From: a virus
Length of the DNA stretch: 64,000 nt
IMG/VR virus record: IMGVR_UViG_3300021964_000050
Span: 4,337 to 68,336 of that record
Strand: one strand, 5' to 3'
The notes beneath the pieces are model-generated. The model worked only from the letters and a program-made list of their open reading frames with translations, had not been told where the DNA came from and did no database searches. A program made the position numbers and the translations under genes. This document shows, piece after piece, positions 17,440-33,004 of the stretch; the first letter of the stretch is position 1; each line of letters begins with the position of its first letter.

Positions 17440-17763
17440 TTAGCCATTTGGACTCCAGTTCTTGAAGTTAGAGGGCACATCGTCTAGCGCTTCAGTAACC
17501 CGGAAACCGCTAGATGATGTACGTTGGGTTGTGTGGATGTCTGGGGTCTCGGTCTCCCCGATGGGTTCAACCTTGTACACCTTCCCAAACAGTCGCCCCT
17601 GATCGGCCTTCTTGTACCCAATAGCAGCCTGCTTCTCTGCTACTGAGCGGTCGGTTGTAGCGTAAGCCACACCACCACCACCACGGGGTTCTATAACGTC
17701 CCCGACTTTGAGGTCGATAGCACCACTACCGTGATACAGGGAAAACTGTGGTCCTAAAGTCAT
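17440..17763 (-). CDS. Arr-like ADP-ribosyltransferase
   Basis: LYHGS..L.VGD.I.P, AYATT, G.VY.VEP.G as in rifampin ADP-ribosyltransferase Arr. Confidence 0.65.
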   Translation of the reverse strand: MTLGPQFSLYHGSGAIDLKVGDVIEPRGGGGVAYATTDRSVAEKQAAIGYKKADQGRLFGKVYKVEPIGETETPDIHTTQRTSSSGFRVTEALDDVPSNFKNWSPNG

Positions 17764-18437: not shown

Positions 18438-18722
18438 CTACTGACGCTTGCGTACGTAAAAGTACCCGCCGTCTTGGTCTGCGTGTAGCGGACGTGCTCC
18501 TGCTAGGTTAACGTCGACAACAGAACTACGAGGACCATACCTCATGGCATCTTTGATTGTGTGAGTTACCCAAATGCCTTCGTGGTCGCCTAAATGAGAG
18601 ACATCAGGGAACTCATTTCCCTTATCAAGTTCTTCTCGTGCATGATCCTGTACACCCCACCACTTGCTGTGATCGGTGCGGTACCCTACCTCTTTAGATT
18701 TGAACTGCGGTCCAAGGGCCAT
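18438..18722 (-). CDS. hypothetical protein, weakly ADP-ribosyltransferase-like
   Basis: GYR, GIWVT, AMRYG strand pattern; TGATG coupling. Confidence 0.5.
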   Translation of the reverse strand: MALGPQFKSKEVGYRTDHSKWWGVQDHAREELDKGNEFPDVSHLGDHEGIWVTHTIKDAMRYGPRSSVVDVNLAGARPLHADQDGGYFYVRKRQ

Positions 18723-19177
18723 CAGTCCTCCCGGTTGTTCGCAATAAAGTTTTCTCGCTCATCACCGGTCAACATGGCACCAAAGTACGCCGTCCTTGGC
18801 ACGGTAGTCTCGTGGATCTGTCCGCCACGACGCACCCACGAGTGGTTACGCCAGAGACCGTCATCTGATGAGGCATACCCGGACCACAACTCCGTATCGG
18901 GTTCACGTGCGGCACAGTTGGCGCTGTTGCCGTGACACCTGCTCATTTCTCCGGGCATCGGTACCGACTGTCCACCGTGAAGAACGCCACGAGAAACGAG
19001 TCGACGGTTAAACGCCGCTTCGCCCGCCGCCGGAACTAGCAGGGACTGCTCGTGTCCGGGCAGACCCTGTATATGACGCTCTAATCCGGTGTGCGCTTCG
19101 ACATCTTCGGCAGGCCAATCTGACATGCGAGTCTGAAAGAACTGTTGTCGGTTGAGTCGGTCTGGTCCGCTGAGCAT
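18722..19177 (-). CDS. transglutaminase/papain-like Cys-His protein
   Basis: CHGNS..GYA..HSWV..ETT; TAAATT -10 six nt before ATG. Confidence 0.55.
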   Translation of the reverse strand: MLSGPDRLNRQQFFQTRMSDWPAEDVEAHTGLERHIQGLPGHEQSLLVPAAGEAAFNRRLVSRGVLHGGQSVPMPGEMSRCHGNSANCAAREPDTELWSGYASSDDGLWRNHSWVRRGGQIHETTVPRTAYFGAMLTGDERENFIANNRED

Positions 19178-19377
19178 TGGGCCAATTTACCATACCCATA
19201 TAGGGGCCATAGCCGCCTTTGTTACGCAAAATGGCTAGGGGCGCGTGATAATTGTCACGACACACAAATGGTTGAGGTGAACGGGCCTATGTGTTTATTG
19301 TCACAACGGTGTGGCTATTTCGCGGGGGCCTACATGGGGTCGTTTTTTCGATTATTGGGGGGTGTCATCTACCCCCC

Positions 19378-19740
19378 TGTGGATAAACTTGTGGACAACT
19401 AATGGTGGGGGGGTCTCCCTGTGGATAACTTTACTTGACAAACCTGTCAACCCCTGTTCCACCCTTATTCCATAAGGGTTTCGTGACTTTGCGTTATCCA
19501 CAACCCCTGTGGACAGTGAATCGAACACCTGTTCGTCAAGGGGTGTCGATGTGACATTTGTCACGCTGAGTTATCCCCAGAACATATGTTCTTGTGGAAA
19601 TCGCCCCCGCAAACCCTTATTCCACCGTAGATAGGGGGGTCAAACCTGTGGAAAAGCCTGTGGAAGCCAATCTTTAGTGCTAAATGCGTTTGAGCCTTAT
19701 GCCGTAAGGGTTTCAGCAGTTATCCACTGGTTGTGGGAAA
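19378..19740. promoter_or_regulatory. DnaA-box cluster (~11 boxes; origin-like or datA-like)
   Basis: TGTGGATAA 19378 and 19420, TTATCCACA 19494, TGTGGACAA 19390, near-matches at 19508, 19571, 19593, 19647, 19659, 19720, 19732. Confidence 0.85.
19521..19592. promoter_or_regulatory. two LexA (SOS) box-like sites
   Basis: TCGAAC-ACCT-GTTCG 19521-19535; AGAAC-ATAT-GTTCT 19579-19592. Confidence 0.7.
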
Positions 19741-20122
19741 CGCGCTGGTAGCCCCCCGATAGCCAGCAAGCACTGCCACACCAGAATCGACCTACGCCGC
19801 TCAGCGGGGCTTCTGGGGGGCAATGCGGTGTCAAGTGACATTTGTCACACTTATCGACCTACGTTCGGGCCTACTGTGACATTTGTCACACCAATCACCG
19901 CTGTGTGGGTAGGAAACCGAACACTTGTACCCCCCACCCCCAGTTGCTATCACCCTGTGACCTTTGTCACATCCCCTCCCCATACATACATATGTCCTCT
20001 CTCCCATGACCTTTGGATTCGGGGGCGACCTTGGGGCGACCGAGGTGTGACAAACGTCACACAAACTTTCTTCCCCGACATGCACGAGTTGCTGGGTCGC
20101 CATGGCACCTTGGAACCATGAA

Positions 20123-20670
20123 CACCGGCCAGCACGGTCGGCCTCATACCGCTGGAGTGCACATGACAAAGCGCAAGCGACCTCCCCCAATGACGGGGGC
20201 GGGGACAGCACTCCCACTGACTACGAGTCATCACCTCACTGGGTATCCGGTGACGGTGGTGCCTGCGTATGTCTTGCCCACCTACGGGAACGACGGGGGC
20301 GGTACAACGAGCGGACAGAACGACGCTCCACATCATTCACATCTGCGTGCAGGACTTCCCCTTGGCTGGGGAGCACTTCGGTGGCCTGCACTCACGACGT
20401 ACTACAGACCTGCGGAACTCTTACCGCCACCAACCCATCGGATGCCCGAGTGTTGGGGGCGACCACGAGCAACGAGATCGACCACTACGTCCGACAGCAA
20501 CGGCAACGACGGCATCACCACCGTCCGACTGTTCGTAAAGCACGCAGGCATGAGTCAGTCAGTCCCCTTGGCAGGGGACAAGGTGACGACGACTCAGCAC
20601 CCTCGCCGGAGGGTGCGCCCACCATTCACTGACGTCAGCCGGTGCATGGTGGGGGCACACTCCGGTGCCC
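20123..20670 (+). ncRNA. candidate large structured RNA (~550 nt)
   Basis: more than 12 abutting helices, including a 10-bp long-range pair 20259-20268/20542-20551 and a C(UUCG)G loop; no credible ORF. Confidence 0.6.
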
Positions 20671-20697
20671 ATCCCACAAGCCTGAGGAGGCAACACC

Positions 20698-21024
20698 ATG
20701 GAAGCAACCATCTCAATCACCCTCACCGACCAAGAGGCCGAGGACATCCTCGTCACCGCCTTGGAAGGGGGCATCAACTACTGGGCAGACGTCATCTCAT
20801 CCGGTCGCAACGACGGCGTGCTGATGGCGCACATTCGCCCCACCGAAGGGGACGACTTCGAGCCAATGCTCATCCACCCCGGCCACATCCAGCAGGGCGT
20901 CGACCGGCTCTGCGCCAGCGAGTGCCAGTGGCATGTCACTGACCTACTCAACGACAACGCCGACGCCACCACCGCCGACGTCATCGTGCAGTTCGCAGTG
21001 CTTGGTGACATCATCTTCGGATGA
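20698..21024 (+). CDS. early hypothetical protein
   Basis: GAGGAGG RBS; ALEGGINYW..DA..AD.I.Q.A.LG.I.FG phage family pattern. Confidence 0.8.
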   Translation: MEATISITLTDQEAEDILVTALEGGINYWADVISSGRNDGVLMAHIRPTEGDDFEPMLIHPGHIQQGVDRLCASECQWHVTDLLNDNADATTADVIVQFAVLGDIIFG

Positions 21025-21082
21025 CAGGACGAAACACCCGCAAGGGTGTCACGGGGTGGTAGCCCCGTCTGATGAGTCCATC
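21020..21082 (+). ncRNA. type II hammerhead ribozyme
   Basis: GGAC-GAAA-CACCC(GCAA)GGGUG-UC^ACGGGG(UGGUAG)CCCCGU-CUGAUGA-GUCC; full core and three stems; predicted cleavage after C21050. Confidence 0.93.
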
Positions 21083-21107
21083 AGCCCACGAGCCTTAGGA
21101 GGCCACC

Positions 21108-21314
21108 ATGCAAGTAACCGTCAACCGCCAGCAACTCGCCCACAACGCCCTGCGCCGTCGTGCCGATGGTATGCGCCGTGAGATCGACGCCTTCATCGAC
21201 GCCTGCGAGGGCATGGACGTCGATGAGGTGGCCTACGCCATCGTTGACCTTCGTGACGCCTTCGACCGATTCCGCAAGGCCGGTATCAACCTCGTGAAGG
21301 AGGCCAACGCATGA
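21108..21314 (+). CDS. early hypothetical protein
   Basis: AGGAGG RBS, biased codons. Confidence 0.75.
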   Translation: MQVTVNRQQLAHNALRRRADGMRREIDAFIDACEGMDVDEVAYAIVDLRDAFDRFRKAGINLVKEANA

Positions 21315-21429
21315 CCGGCAACCAAGGTCACAAGCCCATCCGACGCCCCATCGACGCCACGGCCTCACGGTTCGTGGCATCGGGGCGTCACCACGCCCAG
21401 CACGGAAGCAAACCCACCAAGGAGAAGAA

Positions 21430-22092
21430 ATGAACGCCATGACCAACCGCCAACAGTCCCTCATCCACCGCCTCTGCAATGAGCGGATGGGGGCGCTGAC
21501 CACCACTCACGCCCACCTGCTCCAGCAGGAGATCGTCACCACTCGTGACGCCTCGCAACTCATCGACGCCCTCATGGCAGTGCCGACTGACCCCGTTGAG
21601 GTCGATCAGGCCGAGCAGGGGCGCATTGAGGCTCTCAAGGCCAACGTGCCCAACCTCTCCCCCAAGGACGCCACCTTCGCCCTGTCGCTCATCAACCAGT
21701 TCGACAGCAAGGGTCGCCTGAGTGAGAAGCAGTGGCCTCACGTTGACCGCCTCGCACGGCCTCAGGCTGAGGCCAAGTGCGACCCTCAACCGTTGGACAT
21801 CGTAGACGTCGATGGCGACCACTACCTCGTTGCCCGTAGCCAGCCAGAGCGTGGTGGTCGCTTGTACGCCAAGCGCCTCATCGACGGCAAATGGTCGTAC
21901 GAGGCCGGTGGCATCGACCGTGCCCGTCAGGGTCATATCCTGACCGGTGACGCTCTCGCAGAGTTCGCCAGCAAGCAAGGCCACACTCACGGTCACTGCG
22001 TGTTCTGCGGTCTTGAGTTGACCGACGAGCGTTCAGTCACCGTTGGCTACGGCAAGCACTGTGCCGAGCGACGCTCCTTGCCTTGGGGCTGA
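21430..22092 (+). CDS. DUF6011-like Zn-binding protein
   Basis: C-terminal CVFCGLELTDERSV..GYG.HCA; LSEKQW motif. Confidence 0.75.
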   Translation: MNAMTNRQQSLIHRLCNERMGALTTTHAHLLQQEIVTTRDASQLIDALMAVPTDPVEVDQAEQGRIEALKANVPNLSPKDATFALSLINQFDSKGRLSEKQWPHVDRLARPQAEAKCDPQPLDIVDVDGDHYLVARSQPERGGRLYAKRLIDGKWSYEAGGIDRARQGHILTGDALAEFASKQGHTHGHCVFCGLELTDERSVTVGYGKHCAERRSLPWG

Positions 22093-22158
22093 GTCATCGA
22101 CTACCGTCCATATCCCATCAACCCATACCCATACCAACCCGAGCCTCAGGAGGCCACC

Positions 22159-23625
22159 ATGTCCACACTCGCAGACCTACTCGCTGGCAACGCCAGCACC
22201 CCGGCGCCATCGACGTTCACTGACGTCACGCCGGTTGACCTCGCCATTCCCCTGATGGACTTCCAGCAGGAGGCAGTAGCCCACGCCCTTCGCCCAGTGC
22301 AGGGTTCGCCCTACGCCTACCTCGCACTGGACATGGGTCTCGGCAAGACCCCCTGTGGCATCGCCATCATCGCTTCGTGCCACAAGGCGCAGGGTGGCAA
22401 GCACCTCGTCGTGGTGCCTCCGTCGCTCCGCATCAACTGGGAGCGTGAGTTCGCCAAGTTCGCACCGTGGCTCTCAGTCGCCATCCTGACCGGCACCAAG
22501 CCATCGGCACTGCCCGATGTCGATGTGCTCATCATCGGTGACAGCACTGTCGCCCACTGGGAGTTGGCTCTCATGGGCAAGGTTGAGTCCCTCGTGGTCG
22601 ATGAGGCACACCGCCACAAGAACGGCAAGAGCAAGCGTGCCAAGGCACTCGCCAACATCGCCAACACCGTGCGGGGTGCCCGTGTTCTGCTCTCAGGCAC
22701 GCCGACTCCCAACGGTCGCCACTACGAACTGGCCTCGCAGTTCGACATCCTTGGCAAGCGTGCTTGGAACGACATCGGTGGCGTCGGCACCTTCTGGGGG
22801 CGCTTCTGCCCCAAGACCGACGCATGGGGCGGGCGTGGCAACGCTGAGGGCGATGTCCTGCACGCCTTCATGACCGACACCTTCATGATGCGCCGTCGCC
22901 GTGATGACGTCATCGACCTCCCCAACAAGGGTCGGTCGGCAGTGTCGATGGAGTGCGCTGGCAAGGCCAGTAAGGACTACATCTCCGCTGAGAATGACCT
23001 CATCGCATGGCTCTCCGATCAGGGTCGTGACACCCGTGGCGCTGAGCGTGCCGAAGCCCTCGTCCGCATGAACACTCTCCGACGCCTCGCTGGTGAGGCC
23101 AAGGTTCAGGCAGTCGTGGAACACGTCAAGGAACTGCTGGAGGACGGCAACGGCGGTGTGTTCGTCGTCGCTGAGCACAAGGACGTCATGGACAGGCTCA
23201 TGATGGGTCTCGCTAAGTACGCCCCCGTCAGTGTTCAGGGTGGCATGTCCGACAGTGCCAAGCAGGAGGCAGTCGATGCCTTCTCATCAGGCCAGAGCCG
23301 GGTCATGGTCGGCCAGATCATTGCGGCTGGTGTCGGCCTCACGCTCCACGGCAACGGTCTCAACCACCGTGTCGTCGTCGTCCAACTCCCATGGACACCG
23401 GCTGACCTCCGTCAGGCAGAAGATCGCCTGCACCGCATCGGTCAGACCAACGACGTCGAAGTCGAAGTGGCACTCGCCCACATCGACGGTCGCTGGACTA
23501 TCGACGAGCGTCTCTGGACAATGCTGGAGAGCAAGAACTTCGCCACCGGCGAGGTCATCGACGGCTCCGGTGATTACCTGCTGGACAACAGCACCGCTGA
23601 CGGTGTGTTGGACACCTACCGCTGA
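22159..23625 (+). CDS. SNF2-family helicase / annealing ATPase
   Basis: DMGLGKT, VVDEAH, LSGTP, QAEDRLHRIGQ. Confidence 0.9.
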   Translation: MSTLADLLAGNASTPAPSTFTDVTPVDLAIPLMDFQQEAVAHALRPVQGSPYAYLALDMGLGKTPCGIAIIASCHKAQGGKHLVVVPPSLRINWEREFAKFAPWLSVAILTGTKPSALPDVDVLIIGDSTVAHWELALMGKVESLVVDEAHRHKNGKSKRAKALANIANTVRGARVLLSGTPTPNGRHYELASQFDILGKRAWNDIGGVGTFWGRFCPKTDAWGGRGNAEGDVLHAFMTDTFMMRRRRDDVIDLPNKGRSAVSMECAGKASKDYISAENDLIAWLSDQGRDTRGAERAEALVRMNTLRRLAGEAKVQAVVEHVKELLEDGNGGVFVVAEHKDVMDRLMMGLAKYAPVSVQGGMSDSAKQEAVDAFSSGQSRVMVGQIIAAGVGLTLHGNGLNHRVVVVQLPWTPADLRQAEDRLHRIGQTNDVEVEVALAHIDGRWTIDERLWTMLESKNFATGEVIDGSGDYLLDNSTADGVLDTYR

Positions 23626-23703
23626 CAACTGGAGGGGGCGCAAGCCCCCTCCCCTTACCCATACCAAACCCATACCAATCAAGTCCTAAGGAGGACAACT
23701 GAC

Positions 23704-24006
23704 ATGACCACCACCTACAACCACGAGGCCGTCGAACTTGGTCTCTACATCGACAATGACCACGCCACCTACGAACTCCGGTGGGAGTACTTCGCCACGC
23801 TGGACAAGCACTGGCAGAGGGGGCGCTTCTCCAAGGAGCGTGCCCTCGTCCTGCTGGAGCGCTACGTCCAAGAGGGTGCCAAGCGCCACCACGCTGAGCA
23901 CGGCACCCCCGGCGACAAGTGGTACACGATCTTCACGCCAGTCACACGGCGTGAGGTAGCCGAGGCACTGTTGGACGAATACATCGACCAGCAACAGATT
24001 CACTGA
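23704..24006 (+). CDS. early hypothetical protein
   Basis: AAGGAGG RBS; ELGLYIDND phage family pattern. Confidence 0.75.
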   Translation: MTTTYNHEAVELGLYIDNDHATYELRWEYFATLDKHWQRGRFSKERALVLLERYVQEGAKRHHAEHGTPGDKWYTIFTPVTRREVAEALLDEYIDQQQIH

Positions 24007-24020
24007 CGTCGCCGGGGTGC

Positions 24021-24050
24021 TTGACCAGTGTCACACCCCGATGACATACT
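24021..24050 (+). promoter_or_regulatory. housekeeping-sigma promoter
   Basis: TTGACC-N18-CATACT. Confidence 0.5.
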
Positions 24051-24106
24051 CCATTCATACCCAACCCATACCAACACCAATCCCAACCAGCCCAAGGAGG
24101 GCAATC

Positions 24107-25393
24107 ATGCAAGTCAAGCACCTACAAGCCGGACTCCAAGTCCACATCATCGACGGGCCGATGCAAGGCTTCACCGCCACCGTCATCGACCCGAACGTCA
24201 TCCCTGACGGCCAGCCCAACCAGCGCAAGGTCGCTGTCGATATCAACGGTGCCGGTGCCAACGGCTCCAACCTCCGGTCGTACATCCTGCCCCGGCAGTT
24301 GGACGTCCAGCCGGTAGCCCCGGCACCTGCCCCGATGCCGGTCGCAGTGCCAACTGCCGACAGCGCTGACCTGACGGTCATCCGTAACGGCGAGGTTGAG
24401 GTCGCAGAGCCGATCACTGACCCGATGCACCCAGCGTTCGACTCATGGCGTCCTGACCCTGCCATCGTCAAGGAGTACGTCAGCCGTACCCTTCCCGGTG
24501 GCTTGTCCGACATCGACTACCTGCTCCACCTCCGTGACATGCGTGACGACAACGGGTACTCACCCAACGTCGCCTTCGTCGGAGAGACGCAGAGTGGCAA
24601 GACCATGCTCGTCCGGGTGCTCGCAGTGCTCAGCGCATTGCGTGACGGTATGCCCAAGCCATACCCCGTCTTTACCCTCAACGGCGAGGTTGGTATCTCG
24701 TCGTACGACCTCTTCGGTCAGCCATCCACCGTCGTCATCGACGGTGTGGAGACCATCGTGTGGTGCGAGGGTCTTGTTCCCCTCGCCCTCAAGTGTGGTG
24801 GCTTCCTCTACCTAGACGAGTGGAACGCCGTTGCCAGCGGTCAGGCCGTCGCCCTGCACACCGTGCTTGACGACCGTCGTGAGTTCACCAACCGCCAGCG
24901 TGCGCTCCCCATCCCCGGTCACCCTCATGGGTTCATGCCGGAGACGGTCAAGGCTCATCCAAACACTTGGATTATCTCCACCATCAACCCCGGCTACAAG
25001 GGGACGCAAGCCATGGCAGAAGCCAGCACCAACCGCTTCCGGTGGGTGCCGTGGGACTACGACGACACCGTGGAGGCCACGCTGGTTCCCAGCGCCACCA
25101 TCCGCTCGTTCGGCAAGGCTCTGCGTGAGGCTCGTGCCCAGCGTGCCCTGACCTTGCCAGTCGGTTCGTCAGCGCTCCGTCGCCTCAACGAGGACTGCGC
25201 CACATTCGGTGTGGACAGTGCCATGTGGTCATTCACCGCCATGTTCCCACCTGCGGAGCGTGAGCGTGTGCAGACCATCGCTGAGGACAGGGGCTTCATT
25301 GACCTGCTGAAGGCTGAGTACCCCAACCCAGTGTTCGCACCTGTTCAGGACGAGGCTGACCAGCCTGTCGCTGAGGATGCCAACGCCTTCTAA
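24107..25393 (+). CDS. MoxR/CbbQ/CobS-like AAA+ ATPase
   Basis: Walker A GETQSGKT, Walker B LYLDEWN, TINPGY.GT, NRF; AAGGAGG RBS before ATG 24107. Confidence 0.85.
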   Translation: MQVKHLQAGLQVHIIDGPMQGFTATVIDPNVIPDGQPNQRKVAVDINGAGANGSNLRSYILPRQLDVQPVAPAPAPMPVAVPTADSADLTVIRNGEVEVAEPITDPMHPAFDSWRPDPAIVKEYVSRTLPGGLSDIDYLLHLRDMRDDNGYSPNVAFVGETQSGKTMLVRVLAVLSALRDGMPKPYPVFTLNGEVGISSYDLFGQPSTVVIDGVETIVWCEGLVPLALKCGGFLYLDEWNAVASGQAVALHTVLDDRREFTNRQRALPIPGHPHGFMPETVKAHPNTWIISTINPGYKGTQAMAEASTNRFRWVPWDYDDTVEATLVPSATIRSFGKALREARAQRALTLPVGSSALRRLNEDCATFGVDSAMWSFTAMFPPAERERVQTIAEDRGFIDLLKAEYPNPVFAPVQDEADQPVAEDANAF

Positions 25394-25470
25394 CCCTGAG
25401 AGGGGGGCGCTACGCCCCCCTCTCCCATACCCCTCTCATACCCATTCCGTATCATCCCAAAGGAGTCATC

Positions 25471-27546
25471 ATGGCTAAGACCAAGAACTACAACAAGCAC
25501 CTCCGCCCACAGCGTGGGCTGGGTCAGGCAGTCAGCCGTCAGCGCAAGCGTGCTACCGATCAACTCAAGCGTGAGTCTCAGAACCGCCGTGACCGTGAGC
25601 GTGCCATGGCTCGTGAGTTGTTAGACCAGCGTCGTCGTCAGAACCCACAACAGCGTGCGGAGCATCTGTGGCGACACAACGTACTCAAGGCCACCATCGA
25701 CCATCAGACTGCCGTCATGAAGTCGTACGGCATCAACGTGCCAGTCAAGACTTCCTTCTCTTCCATGTTGTGGGGGCGTCAAAAGAGTCTCAAGGCTTGG
25801 ACAGACCACCAGCAGATTGTCATTCAGTTCCCCGAACATCTGTTGCCGGTTGACCGCACCAACACCGATGCTCTCGTGGACGGCATCGCCACCTTGCGTG
25901 GCGTGTTCCAACACGAGTTGGGTCACATCCGGTTCACCACCCCGTTCCTACAACTGGGCTGGGTAGACTTCACTGACGTCCCGATGCGAGAACTGCACTG
26001 GCCGTGGAACTGTCTGGAAGATCAGCGCATGGAGTCGGCAGTCGTTGCTGACGTGCCTCGTCTGGCTTCGTACTTCACGACGATGATCGTGGAGCACATC
26101 GTCAAGGGCAACGATGCTGACCGCTCGTGGCTCTTGCTCGCCGGTCGGACGTACCTACCCACCATCCTGCGCCAGCAGTCTCGTGACCTCTTCGTAAGCA
26201 TCTACGGAGAATCGTTGGCACGGCGTTGGGAGTCTGAGGTGCAGACGTACATCGGTGCCAAGTCCCACGACGAACTCCGTGAGTCTGTCATCCGTGCCCA
26301 TGCTCTTCTGCAAGAGATCAAGGCTGACATGCCGTCGCCATCAGTTGATGAGCACCACGGAGAGACTGGTCAGTCTGACCCCTCTGATAGTGCTACCGAT
26401 ATCGACAACGACGACTTGGAGAAGGACGAGTCGGGTGACAGCACCGGCACTGCCGATGGCACCGGCGATGAGTCAGACGACGAGGGCGCTGGTGCCGGTG
26501 AGTCCGGCAACGAGTCAGACGCTGACAGCACCACGTCATCCAGTGACGGCGACGAGTCCAGCGACGGCGACGATGGTCAGTCCACCAGTGCCAACGCCGA
26601 CGCTGGTGAGTCCGATCAGGATGCTCAAGCGCAGTCATCGGGCAACGGTGCCACCACTGGCTCTCTTGACACGAGCAACATCCGTAGAGAGATGGAGAGC
26701 ATCATGCGGGAGGCGATAGACGAAGCCATCAACGAGATGCGTGCAGACAGCACCAACAACGAAATCCTCGTTGAGGCTAACGAACTCAGCAATGATACGG
26801 GTTCCATTCCATTCCTTACCGGCCACTCAGCACCTATGTCTGCCGATATGCAGGCAGACGCAGAGGCGCTGGCTGTCGGCATGGAGAACGCACTCAATGA
26901 CTTCGTGTCCGCTAGCCAGCCGGTGTGGATGTCTCATCAGGAGCACGGCATCATCGACCCCATCGCCTTCCGTACCAAGTCGGTCGGTGACATGGACTAC
27001 CGCCGTGGTCTCACCGGAGACTTCACCGAAGGTCTTGACATCCACGTCTCGCTTCTCTGCGACGCATCGGTGTCGATGGAGTACGAGCCGATGCAGGCTC
27101 TGTCCAAGGTCATCTACGCCACCTCCAAGGCGTGCAACAACCTTGGCATCGGCCTGACCACCACGTTGTGGTCATCAGACAGGGACACCTACCGCCTCAG
27201 TCCAGAGGATGTCGGTGCGCCCGTTGTCTACGAAACGCTTGGCGGTACTGACCCCACTGAAGCGCTGGATGATCTGGACAACCACGACATCGGTAACGTG
27301 GAGAACCATCTCGTCATCATCTTCACCGATGGTGACTGGAACAGCGACTTCCCCGGTGTTCATCAGTGGGAGCGCCCCGGTCGCCACACTGTACTCGTGC
27401 AATACAACGGGTACTGGCAGAACATGACCGGCGTGCTGGGACGCACCAGCGACACTCGTGGGTGCGACGAGGCGTTCCGTATCGGAGACGTACTCCAACT
27501 TCCGGTGGAGATGACCAGCGCCATCGCCGGTCTGCTCTCCAAGTGA
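25471..27546 (+). CDS. vWA-domain protein with N-terminal metallopeptidase-like domain (CobT-like partner)
   Basis: HELGH, NCLED.R.E, acidic linker, MIDAS DASVS, GGT, FTDG. Confidence 0.82.
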   Translation: MAKTKNYNKHLRPQRGLGQAVSRQRKRATDQLKRESQNRRDRERAMARELLDQRRRQNPQQRAEHLWRHNVLKATIDHQTAVMKSYGINVPVKTSFSSMLWGRQKSLKAWTDHQQIVIQFPEHLLPVDRTNTDALVDGIATLRGVFQHELGHIRFTTPFLQLGWVDFTDVPMRELHWPWNCLEDQRMESAVVADVPRLASYFTTMIVEHIVKGNDADRSWLLLAGRTYLPTILRQQSRDLFVSIYGESLARRWESEVQTYIGAKSHDELRESVIRAHALLQEIKADMPSPSVDEHHGETGQSDPSDSATDIDNDDLEKDESGDSTGTADGTGDESDDEGAGAGESGNESDADSTTSSSDGDESSDGDDGQSTSANADAGESDQDAQAQSSGNGATTGSLDTSNIRREMESIMREAIDEAINEMRADSTNNEILVEANELSNDTGSIPFLTGHSAPMSADMQADAEALAVGMENALNDFVSASQPVWMSHQEHGIIDPIAFRTKSVGDMDYRRGLTGDFTEGLDIHVSLLCDASVSMEYEPMQALSKVIYATSKACNNLGIGLTTTLWSSDRDTYRLSPEDVGAPVVYETLGGTDPTEALDDLDNHDIGNVENHLVIIFTDGDWNSDFPGVHQWERPGRHTVLVQYNGYWQNMTGVLGRTSDTRGCDEAFRIGDVLQLPVEMTSAIAGLLSK

Positions 27547-27638
27547 CAGAGGTGAGGGGTGTGGATGTCACACCCCTCACCTACTGTTGCGTTATCAACC
27601 CATACCCATACCAACCCATCCCAAACAAGGAGAATCCA

Positions 27639-28175
27639 ATGCCCAACTGGTGCTCAAACCACATCACTATCTCTTCGACCAACGAAGAGTCCATCGACCA
27701 CATCTGGAACGTCATCCACGCTGATGACGACCTCAACCTCATGGGCTTGCGCCCTCGCCCCGATGACGTCGGGGACGGCTGGCACGGCTGGTCAGTCCAA
27801 CACTGGGGTACCAAGTGGTCGCTGGACATCCACAACATCGACCTCGCTGAGTTCTTCGGTGAGTTCACCATCAGCATCGGTGCCGACTCAGCGTGGTCGC
27901 CACCACTGGAACTGCTGGCGTACATCACTGAGCGTTTCACTGACGTCAAAGCCGACATCTCATTCCACGAGCAAGGCATGGACTTCATAGGGTTCGCCCA
28001 CTGTGAGGACGGTCAATACGTCCTCAGCGATGGCTCCATCTCTGACAACCTCCCAGCCGACTTCGACTGGGACAGTGACGACGCCCAAGATGTCGTCAAT
28101 GACACCCTTGACATGTTGCTTGACCAACATGAGACACACGTAATGACCCAACTAACAATGAAAGCAGGTAACTGA
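27639..28175 (+). CDS. DUF1281/YubB ferredoxin-like protein
   Basis: MPNWCSN, W..W...WGTKW, SAWSPP, E.GM.F.G. Confidence 0.8.
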   Translation: MPNWCSNHITISSTNEESIDHIWNVIHADDDLNLMGLRPRPDDVGDGWHGWSVQHWGTKWSLDIHNIDLAEFFGEFTISIGADSAWSPPLELLAYITERFTDVKADISFHEQGMDFIGFAHCEDGQYVLSDGSISDNLPADFDWDSDDAQDVVNDTLDMLLDQHETHVMTQLTMKAGN

Positions 28176-31694: not shown

Positions 31695-32210
31695 ATGAAC
31701 ACATTTCATTCCACACATACCACCCATCTCGCACTACGCAATGCCCTGAAAGAGGCATGTTACGAAGTGCTCAAGACCTTTGAGGATCAAGTGCTGACCA
31801 CAGGCGAAGTAACCGAACTGGTCAAGGCAGAGTACCCCGATTTGGTTGACTTCATAGACGCCCCGCAGTCCGATAAGTCACCAGTATCTTCAGTGCTCTT
31901 CCAGATTGCGTCCAACACTAAGGGACAGTTTACGTTCATCAAGAACGTGCGAAAAGGGGAATACGTATTCACGAAGAAGCGTGTACCAACTCGTACTGAC
32001 ATTATGACGTACAACCCTTCGCTTAGGAATAAGAAGAAGAAGGGTGTACAAACAAGGGTGGCCGAGCCGGTCACTGAGAGTGTCACTGTACAACTTCCTG
32101 CCATCAGCAATGCCCCGCACTTCTCGTTCGTGGGCAAGATTGACGGACAACTTGTTATCAAAGACGAGAGAGAGAATCTCTACGTAGTCCAGCCAGCGAA
32201 ACTGGCTTAG
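31695..32210 (+). CDS. hypothetical protein, possible winged-helix DNA-binding domain
   Basis: LTTGEV..V..YP..VSSVL..V.KGEY pattern. Confidence 0.6.
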   Translation: MNTFHSTHTTHLALRNALKEACYEVLKTFEDQVLTTGEVTELVKAEYPDLVDFIDAPQSDKSPVSSVLFQIASNTKGQFTFIKNVRKGEYVFTKKRVPTRTDIMTYNPSLRNKKKKGVQTRVAEPVTESVTVQLPAISNAPHFSFVGKIDGQLVIKDERENLYVVQPAKLA

Positions 32211-32218
32211 CAGTAATG

Positions 32219-32251
32219 AAAGAGGGGAGGCTTCGGCCTCCCCTCTTTTTT
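32219..32251. terminator. terminator at convergence of early island and minus-strand arm
   Basis: AAAGAGGGGAGGC-TTCG-GCCTCCCCTCTTT plus T tract. Confidence 0.9.
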
Positions 32252-32266
32252 GCGTTCTAGGGTCAT

Positions 32267-33004
32267 TTACCAGTCAACCAGCAGGCAGTTATCCCCCAGC
32301 ACTGCCTTGGGGTTATGCACCCCACGGGCGTAGTTCGCCCCTAGTCCGGTAACCCAGACATCGCGCACTTGAGTGTCGTAATGGTGGTGGTAGTGCCCGT
32401 GATACACCTCGCATACGGGGGTGTTATCCACCACAGACAATACCGCTTTACGATTCTGCTCAGAGGCCCTGTCGATTTTGTAGCCCTGCTCACGCAGCCA
32501 GCCACGCAGCGAAGAGTTTGCTGGGGCGTCATGGGACAGGAGTATGTCTGCCCTATGGCCGTTGTCGATAGCCCTATGAACGTCAGCGGTACTAACGCTC
32601 TCTTGAGGCCACCAGTTCACGCCTTGTTGACGTCGGTGATAATCGACGCTCACAGCACCGCCTAGGAACAGCACTGTTTTGTTGCCGATCTTCAGTGTGC
32701 TCCCACGGGGGCAGTAGAACATACGTTCGTGGAAGTGCTTGATCGGCTTCTTGGGGTGCTTACCTTTCCGTATCTCTGAACGGATGTAGTCGTGTTGGTC
32801 GTGGTTACCGTCTAGCCATAGCCATTTGCGTCGCTCGTCAGCATCCAGCCATGCCCTGATCGACGTCAGTACGTTAGGGCTGAAGTCGTAGCCGAAGTCA
32901 CCCAGTTGGATGATGTATGTCGCCCCATGTGTCTTGGCTAGTCGGTTGATGCTGGAGATGAACTTAGCGTCGCCGTGGGTATCCCCGACGAGCAGTACCT
33001 TCAC
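32267..33004 (-). CDS. metallophosphoesterase (calcineurin-like)
   Basis: GDTHG, LGDFG, DGNHD, SHDAP, HGHYH. Confidence 0.9.
   Translation of the reverse strand: MKVLLVGDTHGDAKFISSINRLAKTHGATYIIQLGDFGYDFSPNVLTSIRAWLDADERRKWLWLDGNHDQHDYIRSEIRKGKHPKKPIKHFHERMFYCPRGSTLKIGNKTVLFLGGAVSVDYHRRQQGVNWWPQESVSTADVHRAIDNGHRADILLSHDAPANSSLRGWLREQGYKIDRASEQNRKAVLSVVDNTPVCEVYHGHYHHHYDTQVRDVWVTGLGANYARGVHNPKAVLGDNCLLVDW

Follow-up and report, generated by a model that had tools for sequence, protein, structure and literature searches.

A DnaA-box and palindrome hub followed by portable intergenic RNA elements in the early region of an uncultivated phage

It is not self-evident whether a regulator-site array, a long non-coding leader, a small gene and a hammerhead ribozyme that follow one another on one strand of a phage genome constitute a single integrated system or are ordinary modules that have come to lie side by side. 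This question is raised by a locus within a 64-kb stretch of DNA (hereafter, the window) taken from the 68-kb IMG/VR virus record IMGVR_UViG_3300021964_000050, the completeness of which is estimated at 72%. A preliminary description of the locus claimed a host-factor site array, a structured RNA of ~550 nucleotides (nt), a gene of 108 amino acids (aa) and a self-cleaving ribozyme at the stop codon of that gene, and it interpreted them as one RNA-centred module. To judge from their distribution in related phages, the hub, leader, gene and hammerhead assort independently and are ordinary modules, not one new system. The reading favoured here, with moderate confidence, is that a hub serving as replication origin and operator array precedes an early operon, the transcript of which is cut at interchangeable intergenic RNA elements.

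Distribution of the elements among relatives

The order of the elements on one strand was borne out. A divergent non-coding hub (19178-20061) is followed on the plus strand by a GC-rich non-coding leader (20062-20584), a leader cassette (20585-20697), the 108-aa gene (20698-21024), which is the first of the rightward operon, and a type II hammerhead (21027-21090), which starts 3 nt past the stop codon of that gene. Because one contig from an independent run of a later study is identical to the window over 19883-21077, this order is not an assembly artefact; in runs X7 and X8, positions 19936-20559 had no cover and no bridging contig was present, and no conclusion was drawn from them. The 108-aa gene is a genuine gene, as claimed, with strong codon periodicity, a Shine-Dalgarno site and a match to PHROG 2355 (E-value 4.6e-19), a family whose function is not known. 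Its protein has no match in Pfam, a profile search of the PDB returned only a chance match (E 0.2), and its neighbours in the ESM Atlas are all unnamed viral clusters. Homologues were confirmed in 198 of 249 candidate stretches from IMG/VR and in 157 of 222 from metagenomes, and they are also present in cultured phages of Achromobacter, Microbacterium, Faecalibacterium and Streptomyces. PHROG 2355 is, by this spread, a widespread phage family.

A synteny comparison anchored on the 108-aa protein and the hammerhead revealed that the parts do not co-occur in relatives, an outcome that the preliminary description had itself named as refuting its module. The closest relative, metagenome locus L008, encodes a homologue with 75% aa identity (81% nt identity over the 108-aa gene), and its synteny with the window resumes at the genes for a 40-aa protein and a DUF6011 protein. 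In L008, the homologue is followed by a plain 45-nt spacer and then a different gene, and it is preceded by a 75-aa gene and other spacers; neither an Rfam ribozyme (at E≤1) nor a leader of the window type was found there. Three IMG/VR records, G081, G083 and G084, share the hub with the window and have no ribozyme, which for G083 and G084 applies to their known parts (44% and 61% complete, respectively). The homologue is the fifth gene in G081, in which the leader measures ~115 nt, and no homologue is present in the known parts of G083 and G084. Three Microbacterium phages leave no room for a ribozyme, since the gene that comes after the homologue overlaps the stop codon of the latter. Of the 80 IMG/VR records that contain a homologue, four also have a type II hammerhead (E≤0.01; above the cut-off in three), which adjoins the homologue in only one (record G051, locus L138, 43 nt upstream). 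An Rfam scan of 9 of 80 metagenome loci detected a hammerhead in one (L012) and a pair of twister-P5 ribozymes in another (L016), and a strict hammerhead pattern scan of 257 loci added candidates in L021, L045 and L084 at a distance of 0.4-5 kb from the homologue. The pattern scan missed Rfam-supported copies in L100, L138 and L147, and the genome search missed a copy in L257; therefore, all hammerhead counts are lower bounds.

One arrangement does recur, namely a hammerhead directly after the first small open reading frame (ORF). The first small ORF of L012 is an unrelated 83-aa gene, and the hammerhead is located at its stop, upstream of the homologue. A variant contig in runs X3 and X8 is consistent with this layout. 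Joints in contigs of run X3 are consistent with the order cassette, 83-aa-like gene, hammerhead, and other joints in that run place the hammerhead directly before the leader of the 40-aa gene. The recurrence of this placement in L012 supports the proposal of the preliminary description that a ribozyme may cut the early rightward transcript after its first ORF.

The hammerhead and the cassette thus appear to be portable intergenic modules; the same slots in relatives hold another hammerhead, twisters, minihelices resembling transfer RNA (tRNA), or nothing. In L016, a homologue with 35% identity lies between two type-P5 twisters (L016:182-236 and 893-947), which exceed the cut-off at 62 and 55 bits, and the second twister begins 4 nt past the end of the homologue match. 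tRNA-like elements of 46-48 nt are found in intergenic positions on the coding strand beside the 108-aa homologue at L008:420-466, L012:832-879 and L011:5725-5770, and a similar one is found at L173:12291-12361. Each of these minihelices has an acceptor-like stem of 6-7 base pairs (bp), one small hairpin and a canonical T-arm, lacks a D-arm and ends in A-C. ARAGORN made no tRNA call for them, and a compensatory change in the acceptor stem distinguishes the L008 from the L012 copy. An exact scan of IMG/VR for the minihelix T-arm gave 62 occurrences (4 real tRNAs, 24 similar armless minihelices and 34 others), and some of the last group may be attachment-site copies of tRNA 3' halves. In G081, three successive intergenic regions (L209:5665-6440) carry the same hairpin with a 6-bp stem, GTCTCA-N3-TGAGAC, just past a stop codon, and this is one more intergenic repeat in an operon of this type.

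The DnaA-box and palindrome hub

The hub occupies a divergent junction; minus-strand genes end at 19177, and the plus-strand block extends from 20698 to ~32210. The claimed array of host-factor sites is present here. A cluster of seven DnaA boxes in both orientations (19376-19730) matches TTATCCACA with at most one mismatch, and at this threshold the interval 19378-19728 holds half of the 14 matches in the window and three of the four exact ones. The boxes are flanked on both sides by 16-bp palindromes. When TGTGA-N6-TCACA was allowed at most one mismatch, six of the seven matches in the window fell within the ~770 nt of 19290-20061, whereas chance would place ~3.5 across all 64 kb. A weaker copy, the seventh of the array, begins at ~19244, and the fuller consensus is TGTGAC-N4-GTCACA. 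The palindromes form a left pair (19244-19305, starting at ~19244 and 19290), which lies 70-130 nt from the leftward gene start, and a right group of four (19834-20061, starting at 19834, 19875, 19956 and 20046), which marks the rightward edge of the hub; one further copy from the TGTGA-N6-TCACA scan (19550-19565) lies within the DnaA-box cluster.

This arrangement is conserved in three relatives. An exact scan of IMG/VR for the 16-mer palindrome returned 89 stretches, mostly single chance matches, of which three (L209 in G081, L173 in G083 and L247 in G084) contain 5-7 palindromes together with 6-10 exact DnaA boxes inside 1 kb at a divergent junction. These genomes have most structural and replication genes in common with the window, at 40-80% aa identity, and G081 is complete (99 kb with terminal repeats), with its hub at ~77 kb. 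In the window, G083 and G084, the DnaA cluster is bracketed by palindromes; the first two palindromes of G081 are found among its boxes. The surroundings of the last right-hand palindrome of the window can be aligned with L209.

Phage and plasmid origins in which DnaA boxes are combined with initiator-binding repeats include P1 oriR and lambda ori. Like these, the hub lies beside replication genes and joins a DnaA-box cluster with sites, present several times, for another protein; it differs from them in that these sites are perfect 16-bp palindromes in two flanking groups and not tandem direct repeats. Most likely, the hub is a DnaA-dependent origin, flanked by groups of operators that would serve two early promoters. 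Several observations weigh against this view. GC content in the hub falls only to ~0.46-0.49 (19360-19540), and neither a repeated AT-rich motif nor a clear unwinding element was found. Cumulative GC skew falls monotonically through the hub without a turn, although this is a weak test for a phage. A simple sigma-70 promoter scan of 18900-21500 found no site, compared with 1.0 expected. Moreover, the palindromes also fit the CRP-family consensus TGTGA-N6-TCACA and could equally be initiator-binding sites.

The last point leads to the most serious alternative, in which the palindromes are not phage operators, but sites for a host regulator of the CRP/FNR family or for a phage replication initiator. 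Besides the match to the CRP consensus, this explanation would account for the interleaving of palindromes with DnaA boxes in all four genomes, for a half-site that has remained constant although the proteins of the relatives are only 40-60% identical, and for the replication module formed by the adjacent conserved genes. However, conservation includes C at position 6 and G at position 11, which extends the arms to 6-7 bp and makes the site more specific than the CRP core, the palindromes are grouped beside each divergent gene start in the manner of operators, and no CRP-like or initiator protein was identified here. Taken together, the alternative is possible, but it is not the probable one.

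A further comparison is offered by T5-like phages, in which an untranslated repeat region contains 8 DnaA boxes and many palindromes, and in which, according to the part of the source available, its role is unproven (bioRxiv 10.1101/866236). Like the hub, that region is non-coding on a kilobase scale, contains ordered DnaA boxes and palindromes and is better conserved among relatives than many genes. As described in the same part of that source, however, it is a terminal repeat proposed to stop DNA injection, whereas the present region is internal and lies between divergent early operons beside replication genes.

Additional repeats were observed in and around the hubs. In G083, the leader contains three copies of the palindrome GTTCCACGTGGAAC (L173:11950-12320), and the hub contains a second palindrome family of the type TTGTAC-N3-GTACAA (L173:11740-11900). 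In the window, a 16-nt direct repeat (14 of 16 positions identical) links the hub (19740-19755) with stem I of the hammerhead (21051-21066), which is probably due to chance.

The leader, the hairpin cassette and the hammerhead

From the last palindrome to the first rightward gene, the non-coding stretch measures 636 nt in the window, ~755 nt in G084, ~470 nt in G083 and ~115 nt in G081. Region 19178-20697 is regarded as non-coding because it lacks codon periodicity (neighbouring genes have a GC content by codon position of ~0.65/0.42/0.80), has no notable ORF led by a ribosome-binding site and yields no PHROG match (E≤0.01) for any of its 10 mechanically called ORFs. The structured RNA of ~550 nt claimed for this region is borne out only in part and for the most part finds no support. 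The whole 636-nt leader folds with a z-score of -4.7 on the plus strand and -2.7 on the minus strand, based on only 20 shuffles. However, among 120-nt windows compared with 60 dinucleotide shuffles, 20500-20680 alone is exceptional (z -3.3 to -4.8), the remaining leader windows range from +1.4 to -2.3, and Rfam gave no match at gathering score for the leader region, with only chance-level microRNA and small-RNA matches over 18900-21400 at E≤10. Significant structure is confined to the last ~140 nt of the leader. Segment 20062-20584 has no demonstrable conserved structure, and its base composition is that of the downstream genes.

Two leader frames, when compared with 5.8 billion proteins, had a single counterpart, P0022, encoded on a 1257-nt contig. 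Three different frames of the window and a 5-residue insertion are needed to match P0022; therefore, the relative carries indels that break the frame, and none of the reading frames is conserved. From two substitutions in P0022, one compensatory change, from U:A to C:G, would follow for a small 6-bp hairpin on the plus strand (20562-20579), a similar copy of which lies at 20356-20373. The leaders of the hub-bearing genomes have no detectable similarity to each other, their alignment scores being those of shuffled sequences. Two further ideas were discarded: a Rho-loading role of the leader (the C/G ratio is only ~1.2, equal to that of the genes) and homology between the first rightward genes of G081 and G083 (BLASTP E 1.5).

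The favoured reading assigns no role to the leader beyond that of its 3' cassette, and the long leaders found at the same position in G083 and G084 hint that there is one, which counts against this reading. Two other explanations of the leader have to be weighed. The first is that 20062-20584 is decayed coding DNA or a neutral spacer without a function of its own. Its gene-like composition, its long open frames devoid of codon periodicity, its absence from L008 and G081 and its single near-identical counterpart among the 5.8 billion proteins would all be expected of such DNA. Nevertheless, no remnant similarity connects it with any PHROG or with any gene of L008, L012 or L209 (a tblastn search of the leader with the genes flanking the homologues in these three loci gave a best E of 0.39), and the separate long leaders of G083 and G084 would require decay to have happened repeatedly. 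This explanation is considered unlikely. The second is that the leader is itself functional, either as an origin-associated transcript (a primer or R-loop RNA, or transcriptional activation of the origin) or as a fast-evolving regulatory RNA retained by position. Long non-coding stretches at the same position in three of the four hub-bearing genomes, retention of the leader in a near-identical relative despite frame-breaking indels and with one apparent compensatory change, and its identity in the independent run of the later study are consistent with such a function. On the other hand, the leaders share no sequence similarity, ~115 nt suffices in G081, local folding outside the 3' cassette is unremarkable, base composition does not depart from that of neighbouring genes, and the plus strand is C-rich, so that R-loops are not favoured. 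A function of the leader as such is accordingly rated as decidedly unlikely.

The 3' end of the leader is a different matter. The cassette at 20585-20697 (plus strand) consists of a long irregular hairpin (~20604-20667) with two 1x1 mismatches, followed by a C/A-rich spacer and a Shine-Dalgarno site. Its region folds with a z-score of -3.2, reaching -4.8 in the 120-nt window scan. The last ~110 nt of the leader align with a spacer of L008 that precedes the different 75-aa gene (score 45, compared with 20±2 for shuffles), and the two hairpins have a common layout, in which two 1x1 mismatches, with 3-4 pairs between them, separate a lower stem of 7-8 bp from an upper stem. At least six base pairs, as read from the two folds, are altered on both sides between the window and L008 and are still paired. 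In variant contigs of runs X3 and X8, the cassette is present ahead of yet another gene and differs only in its apical part. By these comparisons, the cassette is the sole element of the leader with evidence of selection. In L008, the same ~20-nt sequence (L008:58-77 and 830-849) borders a cassette-bearing and a cassette-free spacer, with a short direct repeat at the junctions, and this pair looks like the filled and empty site of a small insertable hairpin element.

The shape of the hairpin corresponds to that of RNase III-type hairpins, with ~20 or more pairs, internal mismatches, a leader position and a shape kept in L008. By analogy, the cassette would be an RNase III-like processing or stabilising hairpin. 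Processing hairpins for RNase III are present in the early messenger RNA (mRNA) of phage T7. The two have in common a long, irregular hairpin with mismatches that lies between genes or in the leader of a polycistronic early transcript and would leave hairpin-capped products, whereas there is no sequence relation between them, and RNase III cleavage of the present hairpin is suggested by the analogy.

The ribozyme that had been placed at the stop of the 108-aa gene was also recovered, as a match to Rfam RF02276 (Hammerhead_II) at 21027-21090 on the plus strand. Nothing else in the window matched Rfam at E≤0.01; the E-value of this match is 0.0036 for the 64 kb and 1.4e-4 for 2.5 kb. The catalytic core (C3-U-G-A-N-G-A9 and G12-A13-A14) is complete, with CUGAUGA at 21069-21075 and GAAA at 21031-21034. 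Both the A15.1-U16.1 pair, formed by A21034 and U21049, and the G10.1-C11.1 pair are present. The cleavage triplet GUC at 21048-21050 conforms to N-U-H and predicts a cut between C21050 and A21051, in agreement with the site at 21050 proposed earlier. Stem III has 6 pairs, stem I has 6-7 and stem II has 4 (21027-21030 with 21076-21079); stems I and III each end in a loop, and stem II is open.

The L012 copy is 98.5% identical over 68 nt (34.5 bits), although the 108-aa homologue of L012 is just 42% identical. The L257 copy has the same core and stem II, and its stems I and III differ at every position with pairing kept. In an alignment of nine sequences, double changes affect four of the six predicted pairs of stem III. 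The canonical core, the preservation of the L012 copy amid diverged flanks and the compensated stems of L257 thus argue for selection on the ribozyme fold. By sequence and covariation, this is a genuine and canonical type II hammerhead, for which self-cleavage is predicted.

Some features speak against an active ribozyme. The score of 34.3 bits is 2.7 below the gathering score of 37. A pseudoknot between loop I and the 3' tail, which is found in most type II hammerheads according to the available portion of PMC3088659, could here comprise only ~3 pairs (UGG of loop I with CCA of the tail, by inspection). Furthermore, in the minimum-free-energy fold, the CUGAUG core is paired with the CAUCAG that comes after it in an alternative 6-bp hairpin. 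If the modelled hairpin forms, the ribozyme could be slow or regulated; it could also be an inactive relic or act mainly through the alternative hairpin, which might, for instance, serve the gene as a structural 3' element. The low score, the sequestered core and the short pseudoknot would suit a relic, but a relic would hardly be expected to keep every catalytic-core position canonical, to persist at 98.5% identity amid diverged flanks in L012 or to have fully compensated stems in L257, and this explanation is improbable.

Finally, a co-evolved module in which hub, large structured RNA, gene and hammerhead jointly serve takeover or anti-defence by releasing a functional RNA of ~930 nt is very improbable: the elements are ordered on one strand with no obvious terminator between them, the whole leader folds well, and the hammerhead recurs after a first small ORF in L012 and, consistently, in a variant contig, but L008 lacks both hammerhead and leader, the hubs of G081, G083 and G084 come without a ribozyme, the homologue is the fifth gene in G081 and overlaps the next gene in Microbacterium phages, hammerhead and homologue adjoin in just 1 of 80 IMG/VR records, the leader is structured at its 3' end only and has no Rfam match, and nothing was found that points to defence or takeover.

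Early-operon model, phage context and significance

From the presence, conservation and mobility of the elements, we infer the following course of events for the favoured combination of an origin and operator hub with an early operon cut at intergenic RNA elements. The cluster of DnaA boxes, to which host DnaA would bind, most likely marks a replication origin, and the palindromes are most likely operators for a dimeric regulator that would govern two divergent early promoters. The rightward early transcript probably starts near the right-hand palindrome group, which would yield the long 5' leader (20062-20697), and the hairpin cassette at its 3' end may act as a processing or stabilising hairpin. 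The 108-aa gene would then be translated, and the hammerhead is predicted to cut the shared transcript between 21050 and 21051, 26 nt past the stop codon. Since stem II is the open helix, the upstream RNA would carry a 2',3'-cyclic phosphate at its end, which is formed by the stem III hairpin. The RNA downstream of the cut would have its 5'-OH immediately at the stem I hairpin, 57 nt ahead of the next start codon. As both products would be hairpin-capped, their ends might be protected, and the stability and translation of the two RNAs would be uncoupled. Part of the ribozyme would be covered while a ribosome terminates at 21022-21024; therefore, translation could delay ribozyme folding. These steps of cleavage and RNA stability are derived from the anatomy of the elements and from general knowledge of RNA decay.

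Although the preliminary description had seen no described system of this kind, the layout does not hold as one system, and each part has a described precedent. The hammerhead, in particular, is a further example of the known type II phage ribozymes. In prophages, such hammerheads flank single genes or short gene blocks of varying identity, and their proposed role is to divide long transcripts of the phage into mRNAs the length of a gene (Perreault et al. 2011, PMC3088659). The window copy agrees with those characterised in the available portion of that work in its permuted architecture with an open stem II, its core, its intergenic position in a phage operon and its varying neighbour gene. 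It differs from them in that its stem II measures 4 bp, its score falls 2.7 bits short of the cut-off, and it occurs once in the 64-kb window instead of as a flanking pair and directly follows the first early ORF. The same portion also describes HHphage of haloviruses HF1 and HF2, a hammerhead upstream of an early helicase operon for which a 5' end was mapped no more than 3 nt from the cleavage site (PMC3088659). There, too, a hammerhead stands in the early region just ahead of replication genes, including a helicase, and HF1 and HF2 are lytic; however, it is another hammerhead variant in viruses of an archaeal host, and it lies 13 nt before the first ORF, whereas the present one lies after it. 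In addition, bacterial twisters and hammerheads share gene neighbourhoods for reasons that, in the portion of PMC6765202 available, are given as not known. The 108-aa homologues present a comparable case, being bordered by hammerheads in the window, L012 and L138 and by two twister-P5 ribozymes in L016. Such mixed borders fit the idea that cleavage matters and the motif does not. Unlike that case, the slots described here also hold tRNA-like minihelices and the long hairpin cassette, which are not mentioned in the available portion of the paper.

Within this context, the source of the window is, by its gene content, an uncultivated tailed phage with a baseplate gene of the contractile-tail type, and its best matches are among phages of Actinomycetota. 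It is present in estuarine samples. The baseplate protein is nearest to those of Streptomyces myophages (~30% identity). The closest matches of the SNF2 helicase, at ~30% identity, are in human-gut, Thermus, Bacteroides and Arthrobacter phages, and the most numerous are in Gordonia phages. The CobT-like protein matches Gordonia phages exclusively (~28% over one quarter of its length). Megablast of the window detected no close DNA relative among cultured phages, and blastn against cultured phages returned only matches of ~68 nt to the 3' end of the gene for the 108-aa protein, in phages of Microbacterium, Streptomyces and Rhodococcus. Scans of IMG/VR for exact peptides and exact 30-mers gave zero matches. 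A scan of genome contigs for the host found only full-length homologues of 26-34% identity and two short partial matches, in very diverse bacteria, and no host was assigned.

The plus-strand block encodes, besides the genes already discussed, a DUF6011 protein, an SNF2 helicase, an AAA_5 ATPase and a CobT-like protein. The second rightward gene (21108-21314) encodes a 68-aa protein without a family match, and its predicted ribosome-binding site would be carried by the 3' cleavage product. The replication module starts with the genes that follow on the plus strand (21311-23625), namely a 40-aa ORF that is kept in L008 and the genes for the DUF6011 protein (21430-22092) and the SNF2 helicase (22159-23625). 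The leaders ahead of the genes at 21108 and 22159 are near-identical over ~22 nt, which gave rise to spurious joints in read mapping. In three intergenic regions of the operon (22092-22158, 23626-23703 and 25394-25470), a C/A-rich leader with repeated CCCATACC-like motifs precedes a strong Shine-Dalgarno site, and the latter two regions each contain a GC-rich hairpin without a U-tract. The operon is closed at a convergent junction by a strong bidirectional terminator-like hairpin with U-tracts (32210-32267). G+C content is 0.59-0.63 in its first ~8 kb (20001-28000), compared with 0.51-0.55 elsewhere in the window, and this step suggests a mosaic origin of the rightward module.

On the other side of the hub, the first gene of the divergent leftward operon (18722-19177, minus strand) encodes a 151-aa protein without a Pfam or PHROG match. 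An N-terminus of the type M-x-L/R-G/x-P-Q-F is shared by minus-strand early genes at 17440-17763 and 18438-18722 of the window and by L209:3706-4116 and L173:10550-11059 (both on the minus strand). One of these genes (107 aa) weakly matches the rifampin ADP-ribosyltransferase family Arr-ms, with an E-value of 0.008 that is below the cut-off. The leftward early genes with the common N-terminus may encode paralogous host-modifying proteins resembling ADP-ribosyltransferases.

A bolder interpretation, which is doubtful at present, is that the early operon is 'punctuated' by interchangeable cassettes that make RNA ends and swap intergenic slots, in addition to a long leader that is conserved in position, free in sequence and situated after the conserved hub. 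The set of cassettes would comprise type II hammerheads, twisters, the D-arm-less 46-48-nt minihelices (presumed substrates of RNase P/Z) and the conserved long hairpin. If this is true, it would provide a testable answer to the question of why hammerheads and twisters share neighbourhoods, namely that any maker of defined, hairpin-capped mRNA ends suffices, and a new kind of leader, situated close to the origin, would be defined as well. The role of the thousands of hammerheads and twisters in bacterial and phage genomes is still open, and this locus, together with its relatives, constitutes a compact natural comparison. The same array of small genes occurs with a hammerhead, twisters, tRNA-like elements, a plain hairpin or nothing, and it could thus be used to test the idea of mRNA punctuation. 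The conserved hub, in turn, is a candidate replication origin and operator set for an uncultivated phage family that has no cultured representative.

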